A stretch of DNA of 64,000 nucleotides, from assembly GCF_965213655.1 (NCBI RefSeq), contig NZ_CBDBZT010000003.1:2637389-2701388 (forward strand). The letters are read 5' to 3'. A model generated the notes under the pieces. It ran no database searches. It saw only the letters and a program-made list of their open reading frames with translations, and was not told the DNA's origin. The translations under genes were made by a program, and so were the position numbers. Shown here one piece after another: positions 2-57,522 of the stretch; within the stretch, counting starts at the first letter, position 1; each line of letters begins with the position of its first letter. Source of the stretch: Candidatus Palauibacter sp. Lineage in GTDB: Bacteria > Gemmatimonadota > Gemmatimonadetes > Palauibacterales > Palauibacteraceae.

Positions 2-166
2 GCTGCACGATGTGGAGGGATGGACGCACAACGACATCGCCAAGGCTCTGGGTTGTGCGCCCGGCACGTCGAAATCGCAGTTGCACAAGGCGCGAGCGCG
101 CATGCGGAAGCTCATCGCTCCGGAAGATTCCGGGAACGGCGGTGCGCGGGGCGAAGCGCGCCTGTG
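2..166 (+). CDS. ECF (sigma-70 family) sigma factor, C-terminal fragment (region 4 HTH); the gene begins upstream of the window
   Basis: Frame 2 translation [37 protein letters not shown]... is a typical sigma-70 region-4 HTH; stop at 164-166; followed 24 nt later by an anti-sigma gene. Confidence 0.6.
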
Positions 167-189
167 AGAGGGATAGAAGAGGGATAGAA

Positions 190-885
190 ATGGCGAACCA
201 CATGGATGCCGAACGCATCTCGGCACTGCTCGACGAGCCGTGGGCCGACCGGGACTGCCGGGCCCACCTCGAGGCGTGCGGGGATTGCCAGGCGGAGTTC
301 GAGAGATTGAGTCGGCTGCGCATGGCGTTGTCCGCACTCCCGGATGAGAAGGCGCCGGGCGGGCAGTGGGCTGCGATCGAGGCCGCGCTCGATGCCGGCG
401 AGGCGCGTGCCGGCACGCGTTGGATCGGCAGGGGCTTCGCGGGCCGTCTCTTCGTCCCGGGGCCGCTCCAGGCCGCCGCGGCCCTCGTGTTGTTTGCCGG
501 CGGCGTGATCGCCGGCCTGCAGTTCACAGGCGGGCGGGGCGCGAACTTGCCGGATCCGGCCTCGGCTCTTCCGACCGTCGTCTCGACTGATGATGGTCGC
601 GCCCTCATGGACGGGCTCACCCGGATGGAATCGTTGCGGTCGCCGCTCAGGCAGGTGGGTGAGGGCGGGGCGGACCCCGCATCGGAAGCCGGGTTGGGGG
701 AGACGGATCCCCTGGAGACGGCACAGAGGCTGGCGAGGCTGGAGGGGTTGATCCGGGCACTGCGTGACGGTCTCGAGACGAATCCCGACGATCCCCTCGC
801 CAGCGCCTACCTACTGGAACTCGTGGAGGCGCGCGATCGGCTCACGGAGGATCTCGGCCGCGCGAGCGGGACGCGAACCTGGTGA
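190..885 (+). CDS. Membrane-spanning zinc-finger (ZAS-type) anti-sigma factor
   Basis: N-terminal HLEACGDCQ = H-x3-C-x2-C ZAS motif; one predicted TM helix (AAAALVLFAGGVIAGL); sits directly downstream of the ECF sigma; stop overlaps the next start (ATGA). Confidence 0.7.
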   Translation: MANHMDAERISALLDEPWADRDCRAHLEACGDCQAEFERLSRLRMALSALPDEKAPGGQWAAIEAALDAGEARAGTRWIGRGFAGRLFVPGPLQAAAALVLFAGGVIAGLQFTGGRGANLPDPASALPTVVSTDDGRALMDGLTRMESLRSPLRQVGEGGADPASEAGLGETDPLETAQRLARLEGLIRALRDGLETNPDDPLASAYLLELVEARDRLTEDLGRASGTRTW

Positions 886-2003
886 CCGTGCTTCTCTCGC
901 AGTCCCTGCGCCCGCTCGCCGCGGCTCTCGCCTTCGGCGCCCTGTTGCTCGCGCCCCTGCCCGGTGCGGCACAGGAGACCCCGGCGGCCGAAAGCCCCGG
1001 CTGGATCGGGGTGCGGGTCGACGAGCGCTACAACTGCGGCTGGGAAACACCGGAAGACTGGAAGAACTGCACGCTCGTCATGCAGGTTCGCGAAATGCAG
1101 GAAGACGGGCCGGCGGCGCGTGCGGGGCTCCTCGTCGGCGATCGACTGGCGGCGATGAACGGCGTGAGGATGACCCTCGCCAATCTGCCCGACCTGCTCG
1201 CATCGATCCGCCCGAGCGTCCCGGTACGCTTGCAGGTCACGCGGGACGGAGCAGACCGCACCCTGGAAGTCATTCCCGACACCCGGCCGCCGGATGCGGA
1301 CGACGTACCGATGGTGGGCCGCCGGACGATCGTGACCACGACCAGGAACCCGGGGCGCGGCACGTTCGTTCTGTGGCTGACGGCCGCCACCGAGCCCGAC
1401 TCCGCCGAGCGCGGCCGCGCGGGCGTCGCCCTCGCCTTCCGCGATACGGACGAAACCGGCGTGGCCGTCGAGCCCTCCGCCGTGCGGGTCGTGGACGGTC
1501 GACTCAACGTGCTCCCCGCGCGTGGCCGACCGGTCTCGGAGTTGCCGGCGATCCGTGCGGAAATACTCCGTGATCTTCAGCGCGAGACGGAATCGGCCTA
1601 CCGGGACTTCACGCTGGCACTCCAGCATGTGGGCGCCGTGCGGGCGCGCCTCTCGGCGACGGAGTTCCGTCGCCGCATCGCGCGTGCCGCCCAGGTGGCG
1701 CTGCCGGAGCCCGGTCTCGCCACCCGCATCCACCGCACGTTCGCCGGGGCGGAGTTCGAGCCTGTACGCGACTTCTCGGACCAGGCCGGTCTCGAGGGTC
1801 TCCTCGTGCTCAGGGTCGCGCGGGGGACGGTCACCGCCCGGCTCGGGCTCAGGCCGGGAGACCTCCTCATGAGAGCCGCCGACCGACCGATACGGGACCT
1901 TGAGGAGCTCGTCACCGCGCTCGATTCGGAACCCGGATCGGGCCCGAGCGTGGTGTGGGTCCGGGGAGGTCGCGAGATGAGCGCAGTCTGGCCCCGACGC
2001 TGA
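882..2003 (+). CDS. Exported PDZ-domain protein (two PDZ-like segments), co-operonic with sigma/anti-sigma
   Basis: Signal peptide (LLAPLPGAAQE); GLLVGDRLAAMNG and RPGDLLMRAADRPI are PDZ-type motifs; ATGA overlap with the anti-sigma stop. Confidence 0.65.
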   Translation: MTVLLSQSLRPLAAALAFGALLLAPLPGAAQETPAAESPGWIGVRVDERYNCGWETPEDWKNCTLVMQVREMQEDGPAARAGLLVGDRLAAMNGVRMTLANLPDLLASIRPSVPVRLQVTRDGADRTLEVIPDTRPPDADDVPMVGRRTIVTTTRNPGRGTFVLWLTAATEPDSAERGRAGVALAFRDTDETGVAVEPSAVRVVDGRLNVLPARGRPVSELPAIRAEILRDLQRETESAYRDFTLALQHVGAVRARLSATEFRRRIARAAQVALPEPGLATRIHRTFAGAEFEPVRDFSDQAGLEGLLVLRVARGTVTARLGLRPGDLLMRAADRPIRDLEELVTALDSEPGSGPSVVWVRGGREMSAVWPRR

Positions 2004-2056
2004 CAGCGTTGGCGTTCTGGACATTGGCGCCGGACCACGGATAGCTTTTTTTATGG
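2004..2056 (+). terminator. Possible intrinsic terminator region (GC palindrome ggcgcc followed by a T7 run) after the PDZ gene
   Basis: ttggcgccggaccacggatagcttttttta; a T-run is rare in this GC-rich DNA; stem is weak. Confidence 0.3.
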
Positions 2057-2088
2057 CTCGAACGCGTTCGCGACAGTCGACAGGGATT

Positions 2089-2520
2089 ATGCGAAAAGGG
2101 CCAGTGCGCCTCCGACTCGACGCGCTGTCCGTCATCGGGGCCTTCCTCATCGGAATCGGGCCGGGGACGGCCGTTCAGCCCTGTCCGAAGCATCGTGCGG
2201 CGCACGGCGACGAGCTGGAGCCCCGGACCGCCACACTCCTAGAGACGCATGCGGAGGCCGCCCCCGCACACAGCCGCGCGGGGCACGCCCACGCCGATGG
2301 CGCCGGCGCCAGCAAGAATTCGCATCCCCACTCGGGCGGACCGTGTGACTGTCTCGGCACCTGCCTGACCTGCTGTGGTCCGGCGCTCGTGGCCTCCTCC
2401 CCGCGCGCCGCCCAGATCACCTCTGCAGACTACGCATCGCGCGGGACGCGGCCCTACCTCCGGCTCGCCCCGGACCCGGCTGCCTACCTCAGACCGTTCG
2501 GCCAACCACCCCCCGCCTGA
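2089..2520 (+). CDS. Hypothetical membrane-anchored Cys/His-rich protein (putative metal-binding)
   Basis: TM-like N-terminus (ALSVIGAFLIGIG); HAHADGAGASKNSHPHSGGPCDCLGTCLTCCGP cluster; GC3 approximately 80%; start uncertain (first Met of the ORF is at 2053). Confidence 0.35.
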   Translation: MRKGPVRLRLDALSVIGAFLIGIGPGTAVQPCPKHRAAHGDELEPRTATLLETHAEAAPAHSRAGHAHADGAGASKNSHPHSGGPCDCLGTCLTCCGPALVASSPRAAQITSADYASRGTRPYLRLAPDPAAYLRPFGQPPPA

Positions 2521-2688
2521 CTCCTCGACAACAAACCGCACCGTTGCCCGGGAGCGCGACTCCCGCCGGCCAGAGGGTCGGCGTGCGTACGCGTGCCGGT
2601 CGCCGAGCCGATGCCCGCGCTCACCAGCGGCGGACATCGGTCGGCGCGCATCCCCAGTCGAACGAGGAGTCGAAAATTGAAGAAGTGC

Positions 2689-3699
2689 ATGACGTTCAGC
2701 GCGTTCGCGCTGCTGGTCCTTGCCGCACCCGTCGCCGCGCAGTGGAACGCCTCGCGCGCTGACAGCCATGCCCCCATCGGCGTGATGGCGGACCACCGCC
2801 ACGAGGCGGGCGAGGTGATGCTCTCGTACCGCTACATGACGATGACCATGGAGGGGAGCCGCATCGGCACGGATCCCGTCGCCGAAGCGGACATCGTGTC
2901 TCCGGGCGGGGGTTTCATGGTCACGCCGACCCGCATGCCCATGACGATGCACATGTTCGGGGCCATGTTCGCGCCGTCCGACCGCATCACCTTCATGGCG
3001 ATGCTCCCCTTCACTTCCAGTTCGATGGACCACATCACGCGCGCGGGCGGGTCGTTCACGACCGAGTCAGCCGGCATGGGTGACATCAAGGTAGGCGCCA
3101 TGATCGGCCTGGCCGACTGGGCGAACCAGTCGCTTCATCTGAACGCCATGGTCGGCCTGCCGACCGGATCGATCGACGAGATGGATGTGCTCCCCAACAG
3201 CCAGGGGATGGACGTCCAACTCCCCTACCCCATGCAGATCGGCTCGGGCACCCTTGATCTCCGCCCCGGCCTTACCTGGCTGGGCCAGGCCCGTGACTGG
3301 TCCTGGGGAGCCCAGGGCAACGCCGTGCTGCGCATGGGCACGAACGACCGCGACTGGTCACTGGGCAACAAGGTGCAGGGCACCGCCTGGTGGGCGCGGT
3401 TGTTGGGGCGCCACCTTTCGGCCGGGGTTCGGCTCGTCGCCACCCGGACCGGGAACATCGACGGGAGAGACGCCGCGCCGAGCGTGAACCCGCAACTGGT
3501 GCCCACGGCCCGCACCGACCTCCGTGCCGGCACCGTGGTCGAAGGAGGGCTGAGCCTCAGCCTCTACATCCCCCGAGCCAAGGCCTTCAGGGTCGCCGGC
3601 GAGGTGCTCCTGCCCCTCGTCCGCGACCTCGACGGTCCCCAACTCGAGACCGATCTGACCTTCTTGCTCGGCCTGCAGATCGTACCCGTAAGCCATTAA
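2689..3699 (+). CDS. Outer-membrane beta-barrel protein with Met/His-rich N-terminal region (CopB/PcoB-like or MetA-pathway 'transporter' family)
   Basis: Signal peptide MTFSAFALLVLAAPVAAQ; Met-rich motifs MTMTME, MPMTMHMF, MADHRHE; alternating beta-strand pattern; C-terminal aromatic-rich strands. Confidence 0.6.
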   Translation: MTFSAFALLVLAAPVAAQWNASRADSHAPIGVMADHRHEAGEVMLSYRYMTMTMEGSRIGTDPVAEADIVSPGGGFMVTPTRMPMTMHMFGAMFAPSDRITFMAMLPFTSSSMDHITRAGGSFTTESAGMGDIKVGAMIGLADWANQSLHLNAMVGLPTGSIDEMDVLPNSQGMDVQLPYPMQIGSGTLDLRPGLTWLGQARDWSWGAQGNAVLRMGTNDRDWSLGNKVQGTAWWARLLGRHLSAGVRLVATRTGNIDGRDAAPSVNPQLVPTARTDLRAGTVVEGGLSLSLYIPRAKAFRVAGEVLLPLVRDLDGPQLETDLTFLLGLQIVPVSH

Positions 3700-3715
3700 A
3701 TGGCAACGCGTTATG

Positions 3716-3745
3716 TACGGGGGTCGCTCCGTCGCGGCCCCCGTA
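3716..3745 (+). terminator. GC-rich hairpin immediately after the OMP gene stop (12-bp stem tacgggggtcgc / gcggcccccgta, loop tccgtc)
   Basis: Near-perfect inverted repeat 17 nt after the TAA at 3697-3699; no T-tail. Confidence 0.4.
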
Positions 3746-3791
3746 GGTGCCCTGCCTTGAGAATCTACTTGAACTCCCGCCACGAGCGATT

Positions 3792-3828
3792 CGTATACGT
3801 AACATGTCATCGTATACACCGTATATGG
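3792..3828 (+). promoter_or_regulatory. AT-rich operator-like element upstream of icd: CGTATACG / GTATAC / GTATAT repeats around an ACATGT palindrome
   Basis: tcGTATACGtaACATGTcatcGTATACaccGTATATgg lies in the 226-nt icd upstream region; local GC is far below background. Confidence 0.35.
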
Positions 3829-3925
3829 TTTGTCAGCGGCGAGGGCCGGTCGTACTCTCCCCACCCGCCGCCACCGATCCCGGTGAGCGAAGAAGGATCC
3901 CCGGAACCAATTCGAGAGAACCCCC

Positions 3926-5179
3926 ATGTCCGACGCGCCTCCCGCATACGACACCCTGTCCACTCCAGCGGGCGGGGAAAACATCCGCATGGCGGGCAGC
4001 CGCCTCGACGTGCCCGACCGTCCGATCATTCCCTTCATCGAAGGCGACGGGATCGGTCCCGACATCTGGCACGCCGCGAGCGCGGTCTTCGAGGCGGCCG
4101 TCGAGAAGGCATACGGCGGCGCCCGCAGGATCGTGTGGTTCGAGGTGCTCGCCGGCCAGAAGGCGTTCGACCGCACCGGGGACTGGCTCCCCACGGACAC
4201 GCTGCGTGCGATTCGGCATCACCTCGTCGCGATCAAGGGACCCCTGACGACGCCCGTGGGTGGAGGGATCCGATCGCTCAACGTGGCACTGCGCCAGAAA
4301 CTCGACCTGTTCGCGTGCGTCCGCCCCGTGCGCTGGTTCGAGGGTGTGCCGTCTCCGGTCCGGCAGCCGGACCTCGTCGACATGACGATCTTCCGCGAGA
4401 ACACCGAGGACATCTACGCCGGCATCGAGTGGGAGGCCGGGAGCGATGAGGCCCGCCGTCTGCGTGCCTTCCTGTGCGACGAGATGGGCGTCTCGACGAT
4501 CCGTTTCCCCGAGACCAGTTCCTTCGGTGTGAAGCCGATCTCGAGGGAAGGGACGCGGCGGCTCGTCCGCGCCGCGATCCGGTACGCCCGCGCCCGGGGA
4601 TCCGGCAGCGTCACGCTGGTCCACAAGGGGAACATCATGAAGTTCACCGAGGGCGGCTTCCGCGACTGGGGCTACGAACTCGCCAAGGACGAATTCGGGG
4701 CGGAGGAGTTCGGCGGCGGCCCCTGGTGCCGGACCCCGGACGGGATCGTCGTCAAGGACGTGATCGCGGACGCCTTCCTGCAGCAGATCCTCACGCGGCC
4801 CGCGGAGTATGACGTGATCGCGACCATGAACCTGAACGGCGATTACATCTCGGACGCGCTGGCCGCGCAGGTGGGCGGGATCGGCATCGCGCCCGGCGCC
4901 AACATCAACTACGAGAGCGGCCACGCGATCTTCGAGGCGACGCACGGCACCGCGCCGAAGTACGCGGGACAGGACAAGGTGAACCCCGGTTCCGTCATCC
5001 TTTCCGGCGAGATGATGTTGAGGCACCTTGGCTGGAACGAGGCCGCCGACCTCATTGTATCTTCTTTGGGCGCAACGATAAGCGAGAAGCGCGTGACGTA
5101 CGACTTCGAGCGCTTGATGGACGGGGCGACACTCCTCAAGTGCAGCGAGTTCGGCCAGGCCATGATCGACAACATGTGA
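3926..5179 (+). CDS. icd: NADP-dependent isocitrate dehydrogenase
   Basis: Full-length match to prokaryotic homodimeric IDH ([39 protein letters not shown]). Confidence 0.95.
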
Positions 5180-5311
5180 TGAGTCCGGCTCAGAGCCGGA
5201 ACCCCCGCGGTGGAACCTCCGTATGACGAGCTTTCGGAGGCCCGTTGTCGCCGGGCGGGAGGGGATCGGGAGGTCCGGTCTCCGCAATCGTTGTATCCGA
5301 TGGAGAGAGAG

Positions 5312-8065
5312 ATGAAGAAGAAAGGCAGGTTCGCGGCGGTCGCAGGGTTCGTGTCCGCGCTGGTGGCGCCGGGCGCGGTTCAGGCCCAGCTCCCCACGGG
5401 CATCACCGAGGTCGCAAGCGTTGAAGGCATCACGGAGTACCAGCTTGAGAACGGACTCCGCTTTCTGCTCTTCCCCGACCAGAGCAAGCAGCAGATCACG
5501 GTGAACATCACCTATCTCGTGGGTTCGAGGCACGAGGGCTACGGCGAGACGGGCATGGCCCACCTCCTCGAACACCTCGTGTTCAAGGGCACGCCGGACC
5601 ACCCGGACATTCCGAAGGAACTCGACGAGCACGGCGCCTTCCCCAACGGCACCACCTGGTTCGACCGCACGAACTACTTCGAGACGTTCCCGGCTACGGA
5701 CGAGAACCTCGACTGGGCGCTCGATCTCGAGGCGGACCGGATGGTGAACTCGTTCATCGCGGCGGAGGATCTGGAATCCGAGATGACGGTGGTCCGCAAT
5801 GAATGGGAAGCGGGGGAGAACAGCCCCCAGGGCGTGCTCCAGAAGCGGGTGATGTCAGCCGCGTACGACTGGCACAACTACGGCAACTCCACCATCGGGG
5901 CCCGCGCGGACCTCGAGAATGTGCCCATCGACCGGCTGCAGGCCTTCTACCGGAAGTACTACCAGCCGGACAACGCGATCCTCGTCGTGGCCGGACGCTT
6001 CGAACCTGCGCGCGCGCTGGAGCTGGTCGCCGAGAAGTTCGGCCGCATCCCGCGGCCGGACCGCACTGGAGCCAATCAACTCTTCCACACCTACACGGCC
6101 GAACCCGCGCAGGACGGCGAGCGGACGGTGACGCTGCGGCGCGTCGGCGACGTGCAACTCGTGATGGCGGCGTACCACATGCCGCCGGGATCGCACGAGC
6201 AGTTCGCGGCCGTCGACGTGATGACGCACGTGCTGGCCGCCCGTCCGGCCGGACGCCTCTACCAGGCCCTCGTCGAACCGGGACTCGCGGCCGGCGCCTT
6301 CGCCTTCAACTACCAGCTTAACGAGCCCGGCATGCTCCTCACCGCCGCCGAGGTGCGCGAGGAGGATTCCCTCGAGACCGCCGCCGAGACGTTGCTGGAG
6401 ACGGTCCAGGCGCTGGTCGACGAACCCCCGACCGAGGAGGAGGTCGAGCGCGCCAAGACCGACTATCTCTCCGGCATCGAACTCGCGTTCAACAACCCGC
6501 AGGGGATTGCGCTGCAGCTGAGCGAGTGGGCCTCGATGGGAGACTGGCGCCTCTTCTTCCTGCACCGGGATCGCCTCGAGCGCGTGACCCCGGAGGCGGT
6601 ACACCAGGTCGCGCAGGCCTACCTGAAGCCCTCCAATCGGACCATCGGTTACTTCTATCCGGCCGAAGAGACGCCGGCCCGGGCCGAGATCCCGCCGCCG
6701 CCGGACGTCGGGGCGCTGGTTGCCTCGTACACCGGACGCGAAGCGGTGGCGGAGGGAGAGGCGTTCGATCCGACGATCGAGAACATCGAGGCCCGGACGG
6801 AGCGGTTCGAGCTGCCCAGCGGCCTCAAGGTTGCGTTTCTCCAGAAGGAAAACCGAGGTGAAGCCGTGAGCGTGAGCTTTTCGCTTCGGCACGGAACGGA
6901 ACGTGCCCTCATGGGGAAGGCCACCGCAGCCTCGATGGCCGGCTCCATGCTGATGCGCGGCACGGCGAACCGCACGCGTCAGGAGATCTCCGACGAGCTC
7001 GACCGTTTGAAGGCGCAGGGCGGCATCAACGGAAGCATTCTCTCGGCGAGCGGTTCGTTCAGCACCGTGCGCGAGAACCTCCCGGCCGTCCTGCGGCTCG
7101 GCGCCGAGATTCTTCAGCAGCCATCCTTCGACGCGGACGAGTTCGAGTTGCTGCGCGAGGAACGCCTGGCCGGTATCGAGTCACAGATGTCGGAGCCGCA
7201 GGCCCTCGTCAGCCAGGCCTTCGGGCGTCACTTTTCGGACTACGCTGCGGATCATCCCCGCTACGCGCCGACCTATGAGGAGCAGATCGAGCGCTTCGAG
7301 GCCGCGACAGTGGAAGACGCCAGCGCCTTTTGGGAGAGCTTCTACGGCGCGCAGGGCGGTACCATGTCCGTCGTCGGCGATTTCAACGCCACGGAGATCC
7401 GCTCACTCATCGAGGACTTGTTCGGTGACTGGACTGCGAGTGAAGCCTACGCCCGTGTGCCGATCCAGTACCGCGAGGTCGACGCGCTGAGCCTCGACAT
7501 TGAGACCCCCGACAAAGCGAACGCCCTCATGCTTGCCGGGATCTCGATTCAGATGCGAGACGATCACCCCGACTACCCGGCGCTGGTGCTCGGCAACCAC
7601 ATGCTTGGTGGCGGTATGAACTCCCGCCTGTTCAGTCGCATACGGGGTGAGGAAGGGCTGTCGTACGGTGTGGGTTCCCAATACAGCGCCCCTCCGATCG
7701 ATGACAACGCCCAGTTCTTCGCGTTCGCCATCTTTGCACCCGAGAACGCGGACAAGGTGGCCGAATCGTTCCGGGACGAACTTGAGCGCACGCTTGCAGA
7801 CGGCTTTGGGCAGGAAGAATTCGAGGGTGCCAAGCGGGGTTACCTGGACCAGGCGCAGAACAGCCGCTCCAACGACGGGGTCATCGCGAACATGCTGTCG
7901 AACTACATGTTCCTGGACCGTCCGCTCTCGTTCACGAGTGAGCAGGAGGCCGCAATCGAGGCGCTGACGGCCGAGAAAGTCGTGGGTGCGATGCGGAGGC
8001 ACATCGACCCGGCGAAGCTGACGATCATCCGGGGCGGTGACTTCGCCAACAAGCTCGTGCCCTAG
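5312..8065 (+). CDS. Two-domain M16 (pitrilysin/insulinase) family zinc peptidase, secreted
   Basis: HLLEH inverted zinc-binding motif ([13 protein letters not shown]); signal peptide; about 917 aa with duplicated M16 cores; GGAGAG SD before the ATG at 5312. Confidence 0.85.
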
Positions 8066-56700: not shown

Positions 56701-57522
56701 CCGTCCCCCTCCGTCGTTCAGGTAGAGCCGGTCGGGCTCCGCGAGTTCGAGCCGGGGGACCATCCCCTCCTGGACCTCGCCGAGCGTGTAGTGTTCCCGC
56801 CACTCGGGGAGAAGCTCGAACCCGTCCTCCGTCTGCCGGTAGATATTGCTCGGCTGGAGGACTTCGGGCGGGAAGAGATCCTGCACCGTCGCGACCTTGT
56901 TGTTCACCACGTACAGGTCGAGGTCCCCGTCCCCGTCGACGTCGGCGAGCGTCATCGACATGCTCCCGAGCGTCGAGGTGAGCCCGGCCGCCTCCGTCCC
57001 GTCCGTGAAGTGGCCCGTCCCGTCGTTCAGGTAGAGCGCGTTCGGTCCCCCGAGCGCGTTGACGAGCAGGTCCAGGTCTCCGTCACCGTCCACATCCGCG
57101 AACACGGCGCCCGTCGAGAAGCGGCCCGCCGCCGCGACCCCCGCCTCCTCGGCGATGTCCTCGAAGCGCCAGCCGCCCAGGTTCCGGTAGAGTCGATTCG
57201 GCCCGTCCATCCCCGCGAGGTAGAGATCGACGCGACCGTCGCCGTCCACGTCCCCCGCCGCGACGCCGGACCCGTTCAGGTAGTGGCTGTTGTCGATGTA
57301 CTGCTCTTCGGTGACCACGTTCTCGAACGAGATGCCGGTCTCCGAGGGGTCGAGGCGCTCGAACCCCGGCTCGTCCTCGCCCGAGACGCGAAGCTCGGCC
57401 CAGCGATACCCGTCCTCCTCGACCCAATCGAGCGCCCCCGACCCACACCCGCCCGAGACCGCCGCCGCCACGAGCAGCGTGACGCGAACGAGCGGTCCGG
57501 CGTCTTGATGAATGTCGGGCAT
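53773..57522 (-). CDS. CRTAC1-family FG-GAP/VCBS-repeat protein with ASPIC/UnbV domains (tandem duplicated architecture), lipoprotein
   Basis: Repeated DVDGDGDLDL(YV) FG-GAP calcium-binding motifs in two blocks; about 1249 aa; lipobox SGGCG. Confidence 0.85.
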   Translation of the reverse strand: MPDIHQDAGPLVRVTLLVAAAVSGGCGSGALDWVEEDGYRWAELRVSGEDEPGFERLDPSETGISFENVVTEEQYIDNSHYLNGSGVAAGDVDGDGRVDLYLAGMDGPNRLYRNLGGWRFEDIAEEAGVAAAGRFSTGAVFADVDGDGDLDLLVNALGGPNALYLNDGTGHFTDGTEAAGLTSTLGSMSMTLADVDGDGDLDLYVVNNKVATVQDLFPPEVLQPSNIYRQTEDGFELLPEWREHYTLGEVQEGMVPRLELAEPDRLYLNDGGGRFTPVPWTEGAFLDEEGRPLESEPLEWGLAARFQDMDGDGDPDLYVCNDFHSPDHIWINDGAGHFRMLAPLAMRSTSFASMGVDFSDVDRDGFTDFFVVEMLSREQRLRMKQMVGGEADPQFAGRLDNRPQKPRNTLYLSRGDGTFAETAQFAGLDASGWSWGSTFVDVDLDGYEDLLVGTGHFYDAMDKDAVQRVGSMDWRQRILGFPPLRLSNIAFRNRGDLTFEEVGEAWGFAGDEDITHGMAVADLDGDGDLDIVTNRLLAPAGVYRNVGRAPRVAVRLVGRGPNTAGVGARVRLSGGELPAQTKEVVAGGLYLSGSEPMASFAVDDGEATIEVVWRDGATSRVEGVRANRIYEIREPEAAAGAAAGAAAGATAGEAESEAPLFDDVSALLGHRHRENAFDDFAQQPLITWRLGQGGPGVAWGDIDGDGDTDALVGGGGGAGLSVFHNDGEGGFSPDRGARGGAAGPAPSPGDQTGLLIVPGRAGATVVVGTATYDGTDRAAPSAAVLSASGTTLTPAQSLPGAESSTGPLAAADYDGDGDVDLFVGGRVIPGQYPAAASSRLFLNESGRYVLDESNATALTDVGLVSGAVFSDVDADGDADLMLAVEWGPVRLFLNREGRFEDATAGFGLEARTGWWNGVTTGDLNGDGLPDLIASNRGLNSQFRASPEHPATAYHTDLDNDGFRDVIEARYDEFTRSMVPVRGLLTLAGGLPFLRNRIQGFEHYGQLGVNEILEQPADLLPTVEATTLAHTVFINRGGSFEAFDLPREAQLAPAFHVGVADMDGDGHEDVFLSQNLFALRGEAERNDAGRGLWLRGDGTGALTPVPGQRSGITVYGEQRGAAFADYDGDGRVDVLVSQNGAGTRLYRNAGAKPGLRVRLLGSEENPAAIGAAIRLEYGGTRGPLREVRAGGGYWSQDDLVQVMGLAGDPASGPTAVWVRWPDGSETVTPLDAPTPLEVTIDAGGALVARR

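Follow-up and report, generated by a model that had tools for sequence, protein, structure and literature searches.

Do the five genes at the start of a 64,000-nucleotide stretch of a Candidatus Palauibacter genome (contig NZ_CBDBZT010000003.1; this whole stretch is called the window below) form a single sigma-controlled module that handles metal in the cell envelope? This had been proposed by an earlier reading of the DNA letters, here called the original prediction. The first 3.7 kb of the window (~69% G+C), whose closest relatives are from Candidatus Palauibacter (sponge-associated Gemmatimonadota), carry an extracytoplasmic function (ECF) sigma factor fragment, an anti-sigma factor, an exported PDZ protein, a small Cys/His-rich open reading frame (ORF), and an outer-membrane beta-barrel. 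All five of these co-directional, tightly spaced or overlapping genes are real and present on the + strand, with spacings in order of 22 nt, a 4-nt overlap, 49 nt, and 156 nt. Our analysis shows two independent units, namely a sigma/anti-sigma/PDZ trio (3-2003) and a cassette of small ORF and barrel (2053-3745). We give a probability of roughly 60% to the reading that, next to this separate trio, the small ORF of the cassette encodes a leader peptide of the CutF/CruR kind that switches the barrel by unmasking its Shine-Dalgarno (SD) sequence, and that the barrel is a path for a soft metal.

Two units side by side

The gene anatomy and synteny of the locus are established. Among 164 barrel loci, homologues of the anti-sigma factor and the PDZ protein flank the barrel in only five, which are the window and L004 to L007, all of them from Palauibacter. 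An ECF sigma factor of any kind was found in the flanks of three other loci and never adjoined the barrel. In the reverse direction, the loci L164 and L165, with PDZ orthologues at 57% and 42% identity, have the order PAP2, sigma, anti-sigma, PDZ, icd, M16 without the cassette. As the trio adjoins the barrel only in Palauibacter and occurs free of the cassette at the same syntenic site, the five genes are two unrelated units. A conserved five-gene module is thus ruled out by forward and reverse synteny, and the sigma link to the cassette is a genus-specific juxtaposition. As the trio of L164 and L165 runs straight to icd and M16, the two genes that also follow downstream in the window (icd at 3926-5179, M16 peptidase at 5210-8065), the small ORF and the barrel look like a two-gene cassette that was inserted between the PDZ gene and icd. 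No convincing flanking repeats marking an insertion of the cassette were found. In L164, an IS110-family transposase (6410-7543, - strand) lies between the PDZ gene and icd, which is the same syntenic spot that the cassette occupies in the window; this intergenic site may attract insertions.

It was in principle possible that all five genes act together as a module against metal stress in the envelope under the control of the sigma factor, and that the Cys/His protein is a stable, membrane-anchored metal binder working with the PDZ protein and the barrel. The genes are co-directional, no terminator was found across them before position 3716, and the motif of the anti-sigma factor resembling that of zinc-associated anti-sigma factors (ZAS) is conserved. 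In addition, the PDZ stop codon (TGA) overlaps the ATG of the small ORF in L007, and because of this overlap the cassette is probably co-transcribed with the trio in Palauibacter. However, the trio is missing from 159 of the 164 barrel loci and L164 and L165 have the trio without the cassette, whereas the small protein is predicted to be disordered and carries hallmarks of an arrest peptide. In our view, such a module is improbable, and the single sigma-controlled unit of the original prediction did not survive the comparison of loci. An ECF-type promoter upstream of 2053, which had been suggested as a check, was also rejected as a candidate: the spacer between the PDZ gene and the small ORF ranges from 0 to ~75 nt and is not conserved, and a sigma-70 scan gave no match on the + strand.

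The small ORF and the RNA behind it

The DUF2946 proteins CruR and CutF, both studied experimentally, are products of regulatory upstream ORFs and sense copper while still nascent (PMC9426467; PMC9973294; preprint 10.1101/2025.02.05.636593). CruR of Bordetella pertussis (bp2923) keeps its CxxC and its C-terminal proline motif at a functionally important distance of 45 ± 1-2 residues; it has RAPP three residues before its end, controls a TonB-dependent transporter by Rho-dependent termination, and acts independently of its signal peptide and of elongation factor P (PMC9426467). CutF of Rhodobacter capsulatus (cutFOG) has a Sec signal, a CxxxC motif, and a C-terminal GPPPRL, and the SD of cutO is masked by a stem that melts upon stalling at the PPP (PMC9973294; preprint 10.1101/2025.02.05.636593). 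A change of PPP to PAP abolishes regulation (preprint 10.1101/2025.02.05.636593). CutF-like ORFs were defined by an N-terminal signal peptide, a length of <150 aa, and a same-strand downstream gene within 1000 nt (PMC9973294). The CutF protein itself is undetectable or rapidly degraded.

The small ORF of the window, which contains the dense His/Cys string HAHADGAGASKNSHPHSGGPCDCLGTCLTCCGP quoted in the original prediction, shares this anatomy (Table 1). Its ATG at 2053 is kept in all five Palauibacter loci and gives 155 aa, and a second ATG at 2089 would give 143 aa. Like CutF, it is small, exported, and equipped with a Sec-type N-terminus and a Cys metal motif; it ends with Q151-PPP-A155-stop, so that QPPPA stands where CutF has GPPPRL, with PPP one or two residues before the stop; and it lies directly upstream of a gene with a stem-masked SD, as CutF does with the metal-homeostasis gene cutO. 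Like CruR, it combines a CxxC with an xxPP near the end, at a distance of exactly 43 residues (~45 in CruR), and is followed by a long intergenic region (156 versus 162 nt), with an excess of C over G at the 3' end of the ORF and an outer-membrane transporter downstream. The signal helix, the size (143 or 155 aa), and the distance to the next gene agree with the CutF-CruR type as well. Differences are also clear. The gene downstream of CutF encodes a multicopper oxidase, whereas here it encodes an outer-membrane barrel; CutF has CxxxC, whereas the window ORF has CDC-x3-CxxCC plus CPxH and a His-rich linker; and instead of a short local hairpin, as in CutF, the anti-SD element here lies right at the stop codon, and its stem encloses a structured domain of 135 nt. 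Further, the host belongs to the Gemmatimonadota, and PF11162, the DUF2946 profile, does not recognize the window ORF. In comparison to CruR, which works by Rho-dependent termination with RAPP and a TonB-dependent target, the window has a conserved SD/anti-SD stem.

The ORF is conserved well beyond the genus, so that the lack of conservation that would have spoken against the original prediction was not observed. A word-based search retrieved 14 close homologue clusters, all Palauibacter-like, and a profile search of 1.84 billion representatives retrieved 41 clusters, all with the same architecture. Of these, 40 are 109-181 aa long, the exception being a 1,463-aa protein matched over 46 residues. 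The 37 sequences new to the profile search have a transmembrane segment, CPxH, a His-rich linker, PC[DT]C..C, and an LLPFANAPP-type tail. Likewise, each barrel at 50-65% identity is immediately preceded, on the same strand, by a small ORF of this layout (transmembrane or signal helix, C-x-H, His-rich linker, PC[DT]C..C cluster, ...PP tail). With a strict filter (PP in the last 15 aa, hydrophobic N-terminus, at least two Cys), an upstream ORF was found in 49 of 149 barrel loci, compared with 1 of 149 on the antisense strand as a control. Across phyla, the last PP in these loci stands 1-5 residues ahead of the stop.

The distance from CxxC to xxPP is 41-47 residues in relatives (42-43 with CxxC, 45-47 in CxxxC types) and 63-67 in a Bacteroidota class; only the His-rich linker ahead of the Cys cluster varies in length. 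In L004 (~5400-5839, protein P0128, Ca. P. denitrificans), this linker contains a tandem (HADHG)x6 expansion and the Cys-to-PP distance is unchanged, so only the part ahead of the Cys cluster tolerates changes in length. When neighbours were clustered, upstream ORFs were the top recurrent ones, with a Flavobacteria/Balneolales class (...CNGKCYL...FHPPSxxS) and an ...IRSPP class. The Flavobacteria-type ORFs (...C.N....L.CNGKCYL...FHPPSxxS) are a class of their own with almost no His, no Pfam match, and a CxxxC-to-PP distance of 63-67 residues; they lie ~60-270 nt upstream of the barrel in L051, L053, L058, L060, L066, L067, L077, L080, L083, L158, and others.

As for its structure, a prediction of which the original prediction had proposed, AlphaFold2 modelled the small protein as disordered apart from the N-terminal helix (predicted local distance difference test, pLDDT, 63.6; predicted template modelling score, pTM, 0.25). 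Judging from these sequence features, the small ORF is probably a distant CutF/CruR-like (DUF2946-like) upstream ORF with a regulatory role, its product being an arrest peptide that senses metal. Because of the hallmarks of CutF/CruR-type upstream ORFs and the predicted disorder, a stable membrane-anchored metal handler is unlikely; what holds of the earlier description is the conserved ORF with its His/Cys cluster, not that role.

The same features bear on a further possibility, namely that the small protein is a functional partner of the barrel, such as an inner-membrane-anchored metallochaperone or a plug whose LLPFANAPP tail docks into it. The strict adjacency and co-orientation of ORF and barrel across phyla would agree with this, as would a conserved tail that is longer than a bare PP motif. 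However, SecM-type arrest peptides also conserve about ten residues that contact the tunnel. The Cys-to-PP spacing is fixed, whereas the sequence of the spacer and the His-rich linker, including the HADHG expansion, vary freely; moreover, the PP lies 1-5 residues from the stop, the anti-SD element abuts the stop, and predicted confidence and order are low. A partner role is therefore very improbable.

Some observations concern the records of these ORFs. Small upstream ORFs often remain uncalled in annotations, as with the one in L001 (7465-7917), which gene callers missed. One database entry, P0122 (252 aa), has the small ORF joined to the barrel C-terminus, which is probably an assembly or frameshift artefact. 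Look-ups of the exact sequences of proteins P0121 and P0200 returned no record.

The predicted pairing of the RNA behind the small ORF is established for the window. Both the minimum free energy and the centroid fold contain a 10-bp stem (2518-2527/2663-2672) that joins the anti-SD element UGACUCCUCG to the SD region CGAGGAGUCG and encloses the structured 135-nt domain. In the five Palauibacter loci, both arms of the stem are invariant and the interior has diverged. The SD has a pairing probability of 0.99, and specifically pairs with 2518-2528 at 0.95-1.0. Masking of 2500-2532, which is approximately the footprint of a ribosome at the PPP and stop codons, reduced SD pairing to 0.18, compared with 0.87-0.97 under control masks. 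In silico, this stem thus behaves like a masking stem of the CutF type, a behaviour that is not general beyond the genus. Analogous stop-proximal anti-SD pairings with other sequences occur in independent lineages (L015, CUUCUCCU:AGGAGAAG; L018, L052, L068, L041), and in a test for the longest complement, complements of at least 7 nt were found in 14 of 54 stop regions versus 2-4 of 54 control windows. The SD-masking design is solid for Palauibacter, and elsewhere it is suggestive. No Rfam family matched the intergenic region.

As CruR acts by transcription termination, the arrest peptide could alternatively work mainly through Rho in the intergenic region. A paused ribosome would then shield a C-rich Rho utilization (rut) site, metal, by relieving the pause, would switch off the barrel, and the barrel would be a copper-repressed copper uptake channel. 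An excess of C over G does span ~2370-2560, with a GC skew down to -0.41 at 2446-2523. This strong bubble matches a feature of cruR (PMC9426467), the intergenic length of 156 nt is close to the 162 nt of cruR-bfrG, the tails of most relatives are NAPP-, NGPP-, or RAPP-like, and Cyanobacteria, which have a high need for copper, carry the barrel. However, rut sites are unstructured, whereas this intergenic region is strongly structured from the conserved anti-SD stem on, and the window has PPP as in CutF rather than RAPP. We regard Rho as the main output as unlikely, albeit worth serious consideration. Rho termination and SD unmasking are not mutually exclusive, and the C>G bubble leaves room for a Rho component.

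For SD unmasking, we envisage the following sequence of events. The leader peptide of 155 aa would be exported co-translationally. In the off state, the stop codon together with CUCCUCG would be paired with the barrel SD; in the on state, a ribosome pausing on PPP/stop would cover the anti-SD element, set the SD free, and thereby allow translation of the barrel from TTG 2677. While the PPP codons are decoded, the exported Cys/His part of the nascent chain, ~43 residues ahead, could meet metal outside the cytoplasm, with the fixed 43-residue spacer measuring off the distance from the peptidyl-transferase centre to the sensing site. The stalling itself is putative, and metal binding would set the length of the pause. 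The sign of regulation could be either, as metal may lengthen the pause and induce the barrel, as with CutF, or shorten it and repress the barrel, as with CruR.

The Met/His barrel

Although the maximal ORF of the barrel begins at 2593, its actual start is TTG 2677; we take this codon as the start because GAGGAG precedes it at a distance of 7 nt and the corresponding codon in the L006 orthologue is ATG. The barrel has homologues in >2,569 protein clusters, and relatives occur in at least 583 species genomes and at least 580 metagenome stretches, ranging over Gemmatimonadota, Cyanobacteria, Bacteroidota, several proteobacterial classes, Kiritimatiellia, Planctomycetota, and Verrucomicrobiota. 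Palauibacter is uncultured, and Flagellimonas, Winogradskyella, and Aquimarina are among the carriers that can be cultured. Over 153 distinct sequences, M37, M48, M54, M56, M58, M87, M89, M91, M93, M97, M109, and M117 are 92-100% conserved and H31, H40, H42, H92, and H119 are 89-99% conserved, with H42 exchanged for Met in 16 sequences. The Met/His motifs are the most conserved feature of this large family. All three motifs named earlier (MADHRHE, MTMTME, and MPMTMHMF) were found, and the description of an N-terminal region loaded with Met and His stands in this respect; in the AlphaFold2 model (pLDDT 85.9), they are located in ordered parts, namely the segment preceding strand 1 and strands 1, 3, and 4, and not in a disordered N-terminal tail. 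The even-numbered face of strand 1 carries the alternating Met residues together with the invariant R52 and the near-invariant R62. In the COG4313 channel Pput2725, the equivalent of the pre-barrel segment occludes the lumen (PMC4493636).

A comparison of profiles for CopB and for the MetA-pathway transporters, which the original prediction had recommended, gave a clear result for the former and a less clear one for the latter. PF05275 (CopB) matched none of 25 family members at E up to 10, whereas PF13557 matched 14 of 25 relatives (best E 6.5e-10); the window protein scored 17.8 bits (E 0.0037), below the gathering score of 22. PcoB/CopB (PDB 7pge) is a barrel with Met/His residues that is thought to move copper across the outer membrane (PMC12509749), and the window barrel resembles it in being an outer-membrane barrel with Met/His. 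In PcoB/CopB, however, these residues are in a disordered, poorly conserved N-terminal domain, whereas here they are 89-100% conserved and ordered; in addition, there is no adjacent multicopper oxidase, and the PcoB-type fold is not matched. Membership in CopB/PcoB is thus ruled out by profile and by fold. As PF05275 does not match and the Met/His residues are invariant and structured, the barrel is not a CopB but a distinct Met/His subfamily of the COG4313 fold, and this predicted fold is established. Identity to the COG4313/PF13557 channels (Pput2725, PDB 4rl8; SphA, TcpY) and to FapF is ~12%, and the window barrel differs from these proteins by its invariant Met ladders and His cluster, by the metal-type ORF that precedes it, and by the lack of a catabolic or amyloid operon context. 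A sequence search against solved structures found no relative.

As known COG4313 members import hydrophobic molecules (PMC4493636), the barrel could also be a conventional channel for a hydrophobic or sulfur-loving organic substrate. Met and His would then line a greasy passage, the upstream ORF would sense a signal other than copper, and the lack of recurrent copper genes nearby would be expected. However, 12 near-invariant Met and five His, with His42 exchanged for Met, are a signature of soft-metal ligands, and no aromatic-catabolism or other catabolic genes recur in the flanks of the 164 loci. Moreover, CutF-like ORFs that are rich in Cys are found before copper genes, and those with His only before Ni/Co genes (PMC9973294). 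An organic substrate therefore appears rather improbable, and the strong conservation of the Met/His residues (89-100%) is the opposite of what an aromatic-uptake family without conserved Met motifs, the outcome named beforehand as refuting the idea, would have shown. In contrast to the five-gene module, the view of a metal-related cluster that is not a standard cop/cus operon is supported.

According to our preferred reading, with the small ORF as a leader peptide, the barrel would be a passive, Met/His-lined path for a soft metal, which could serve import or release; Cu(I) is the most likely metal and Ag(I) a possible one.

Several observations weigh against this reading. With regard to the barrel, no copper genes (multicopper oxidase, P-type ATPase, Cus) recur beside it in the 164 loci, so that the link to copper rests on residue chemistry and the type of the upstream ORF. 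That the Met ladders face the lumen is suggested by the periodicity of predicted strands, and H92 is on the strand face opposite the Met ladder. In the cyanobacterial loci (L012, L016, L020, L022, L026, L028-L030, L032, L034-L040, L043), no PP-tailed upstream ORF was detected. With regard to the small ORF, Pfam DUF2946 (PF11162) did not match that of the window at E up to 10. It is the only recurrent Pfam match among relatives, with hits in 8 of 38 (best E 3.9e-4) that are below the gathering score; as two other barrel-linked ORFs match it over the full profile length (E 0.003 and 0.015), a distant homology is plausible. The C-terminal motif is QPPP and not RAPP, and 155 aa from the conserved ATG slightly exceeds the <150 aa of the CutF-like filter (PMC9973294). 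With regard to the RNA, the TTG start is predicted to pair weakly when the anti-SD is masked (P 0.94, short helix). Outside Palauibacter, duplex energies had unremarkable z-scores relative to shuffles, and a family-wide masking test with 35 non-redundant loci was not significant (Wilcoxon p = 0.56).

CutF/CruR-type upstream ORFs are already known, whereas the cassette of small ORF and barrel is widespread and undescribed. As neighbours, the texts of the CutF/CruR papers list OEP/RND, CusF, TonB-dependent transporters, PCuAC, HupE/UreJ, NosZ/NosR, PepSY, Sco, YcnI/CopC, and MbnPH; a COG4313-type barrel or Gemmatimonadota are not named in these texts, a statement that does not extend to the figures and most supplements. 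A search for literature linking PF13557/COG4313 to copper, or DUF2946 to a Met-rich barrel, returned nothing relevant. Copper passage across the outer membrane without TonB-dependent receptors or resistance-nodulation-division (RND) pumps is poorly understood, especially outside Proteobacteria, and a barrel with 12 near-invariant Met and five His is a concrete candidate for a copper channel. If our reading is true, the cassette would extend the sensor principle of CutF/CruR to new phyla and a new class of targets. A more far-reaching idea, which we put forward tentatively and would not yet bet on, is that the barrel founds a large, undescribed family of Met-ladder, Cu(I)/Ag(I)-selective channels of the COG4313 fold, about one-third of the sampled loci being translationally gated by a nascent-peptide metal sensor with a Cys-to-PP ruler of ~43 or ~63 residues. 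Arrest peptides of the CutF/CruR type would then have a further class of output, and copper a passive way through the outer membrane that had been missing so far. The two discrete spacings could be used to probe how a nascent chain passes a metal signal to the ribosome.

In at least 11 barrel loci without the small ORF (L042, L076, L078, L082, L097, L119, L123, L126, L139, L149, L155), a divergent histidine kinase gene lies ~90 nt upstream of the barrel on the opposite strand. A sigma-54-dependent response regulator (Response_reg + Sigma54_activat + HTH_8), whose cluster spans 20 loci, is encoded nearby, and the pair would be an alternative, possibly ZraSR-like, control of the same barrel. The cyanobacterial homologues of the barrel retain the Met/His signature. 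Current labels of the barrel are only 'transporter' or 'phenol MetA-pathway'.

The trio and the remaining features

The sigma/anti-sigma/PDZ trio is an ordinary ECF stress operon, which Palauibacter-like Gemmatimonadota conserve independently of the cassette. A sigma-70 region 4 is followed by an anti-sigma factor with HxxxCxxC, as is typical of ECF sigma/ZAS pairs, and full-length orthologues of the sigma factor are present in L004, L005, L007, L164, and L165. The HxxxCxxC motif that had been noticed in the anti-sigma factor is indeed there, spelled H26-LEA-C30-GD-C33, and is invariant in three orthologues with identities down to 48%. Pfam zf-HC2 did not match this protein, and both the NCBIfam anti-sigma model NF052375 (E 2.8e-8) and the RsrA model remained below their cut-offs. 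The GTG start of the PDZ gene overlaps the anti-sigma stop. Its product has a signal peptide and, as expected from the earlier description, two PDZ domains according to Pfam; no protease domain was found with Pfam and NCBIfam. All of its 41 homologues are from Gemmatimonadota.

Table 1. Positions of the genes, protein motifs, and RNA elements in the window
Feature	Position	Strand	Remarks
ECF-type sigma factor, C-terminal fragment (region 4, last 54 aa)	3-167	+	Pfam Sigma70_r4_2, E 1e-9; truncated by window edge
Anti-sigma factor, single-pass, ZAS-like motif	190-885	+	H26-x3-C30-x2-C33
Exported protein with two PDZ domains	882-2003	+	Pfam PDZ_6 and PDZ_2, two stretches
Small Cys/His ORF, 155 aa	2053-2520	+	conserved ATG at 2053
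Hydrophobic signal/transmembrane segment DALSVIGAFLIGIGPG after Arg-rich N-region	2119-2166	+	invariant AF..GIGPG; AlphaFold2 helix, residues 6-23 of the 143-aa form
First metal-ligand motif C44-P-K-H47	2182-2193	+	C44 and H47 invariant; CPxH in distant relatives
Cys cluster C98-D-C100-LGT-C104-LT-C107-C108	2344-2376	+	C98, C100, C104, C107 invariant; includes CxxC C104-C107
Putative arrest motif Pro152-Pro153-Pro154-Ala155, one residue before stop	2506-2517	+	PP invariant
Anti-SD element UGACUCCUCG, small ORF stop codon + 7 nt (CUCCUCG)	2518-2527	+	pairs with 2663-2672
Structured interior of intergenic region, within closing stem	2528-2662	+	10 interior pairs with compensatory changes (consensus fold)
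Barrel SD region CGAGGAGUCG	2663-2672	+	P(paired) 0.99 in free RNA
Outer-membrane beta-barrel, 12-stranded, 340 aa, 22-aa signal peptide	2677-3699	+	COG4313/FapF-fold subfamily, invariant Met/His
Pre-barrel segment H31...D39-H40-x-H42...E46	2767-2814	+	conservation: H31 0.93, H40 0.99, H42 0.89
Strand 1 Met ladder M48, M54, M56, M58	2818-2850	+	conservation 0.92-1.00
Strand 3 Met ladder M87, M89, M91, M93, M97, plus H92	2935-2967	+	conservation 0.93-1.00
M117-D118-H119 motif, strand 4	3025-3033	+	conservation: M117 1.00, H119 0.96
Hairpin shortly 3' of barrel stop, 12-nt arms, 6-nt loop	3716-3745	+	inverted repeat I19

The hairpin at 3716-3745 is terminator-like but has no T-tract. Its stem is kept in L004 and L007 with a different sequence in both arms, and it probably ends the operon. 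Further downstream, at ~3785-3835 and thus upstream of icd, an element rich in GTATAC palindromes (CGTATACGTAACATGT...TATACA...TGGTTTGTCAGCG) is conserved in the window, L004, and L007, and also occurs before icd in the cassette-free L164; it may be an operator or promoter of icd. Two promoter-like matches on the minus strand fall near this element. In the 64 kb as a whole, no Rfam family reached its gathering score, and the sole tRNA found is a tRNA-Glu (CTC) at 57343-57414 on the - strand.

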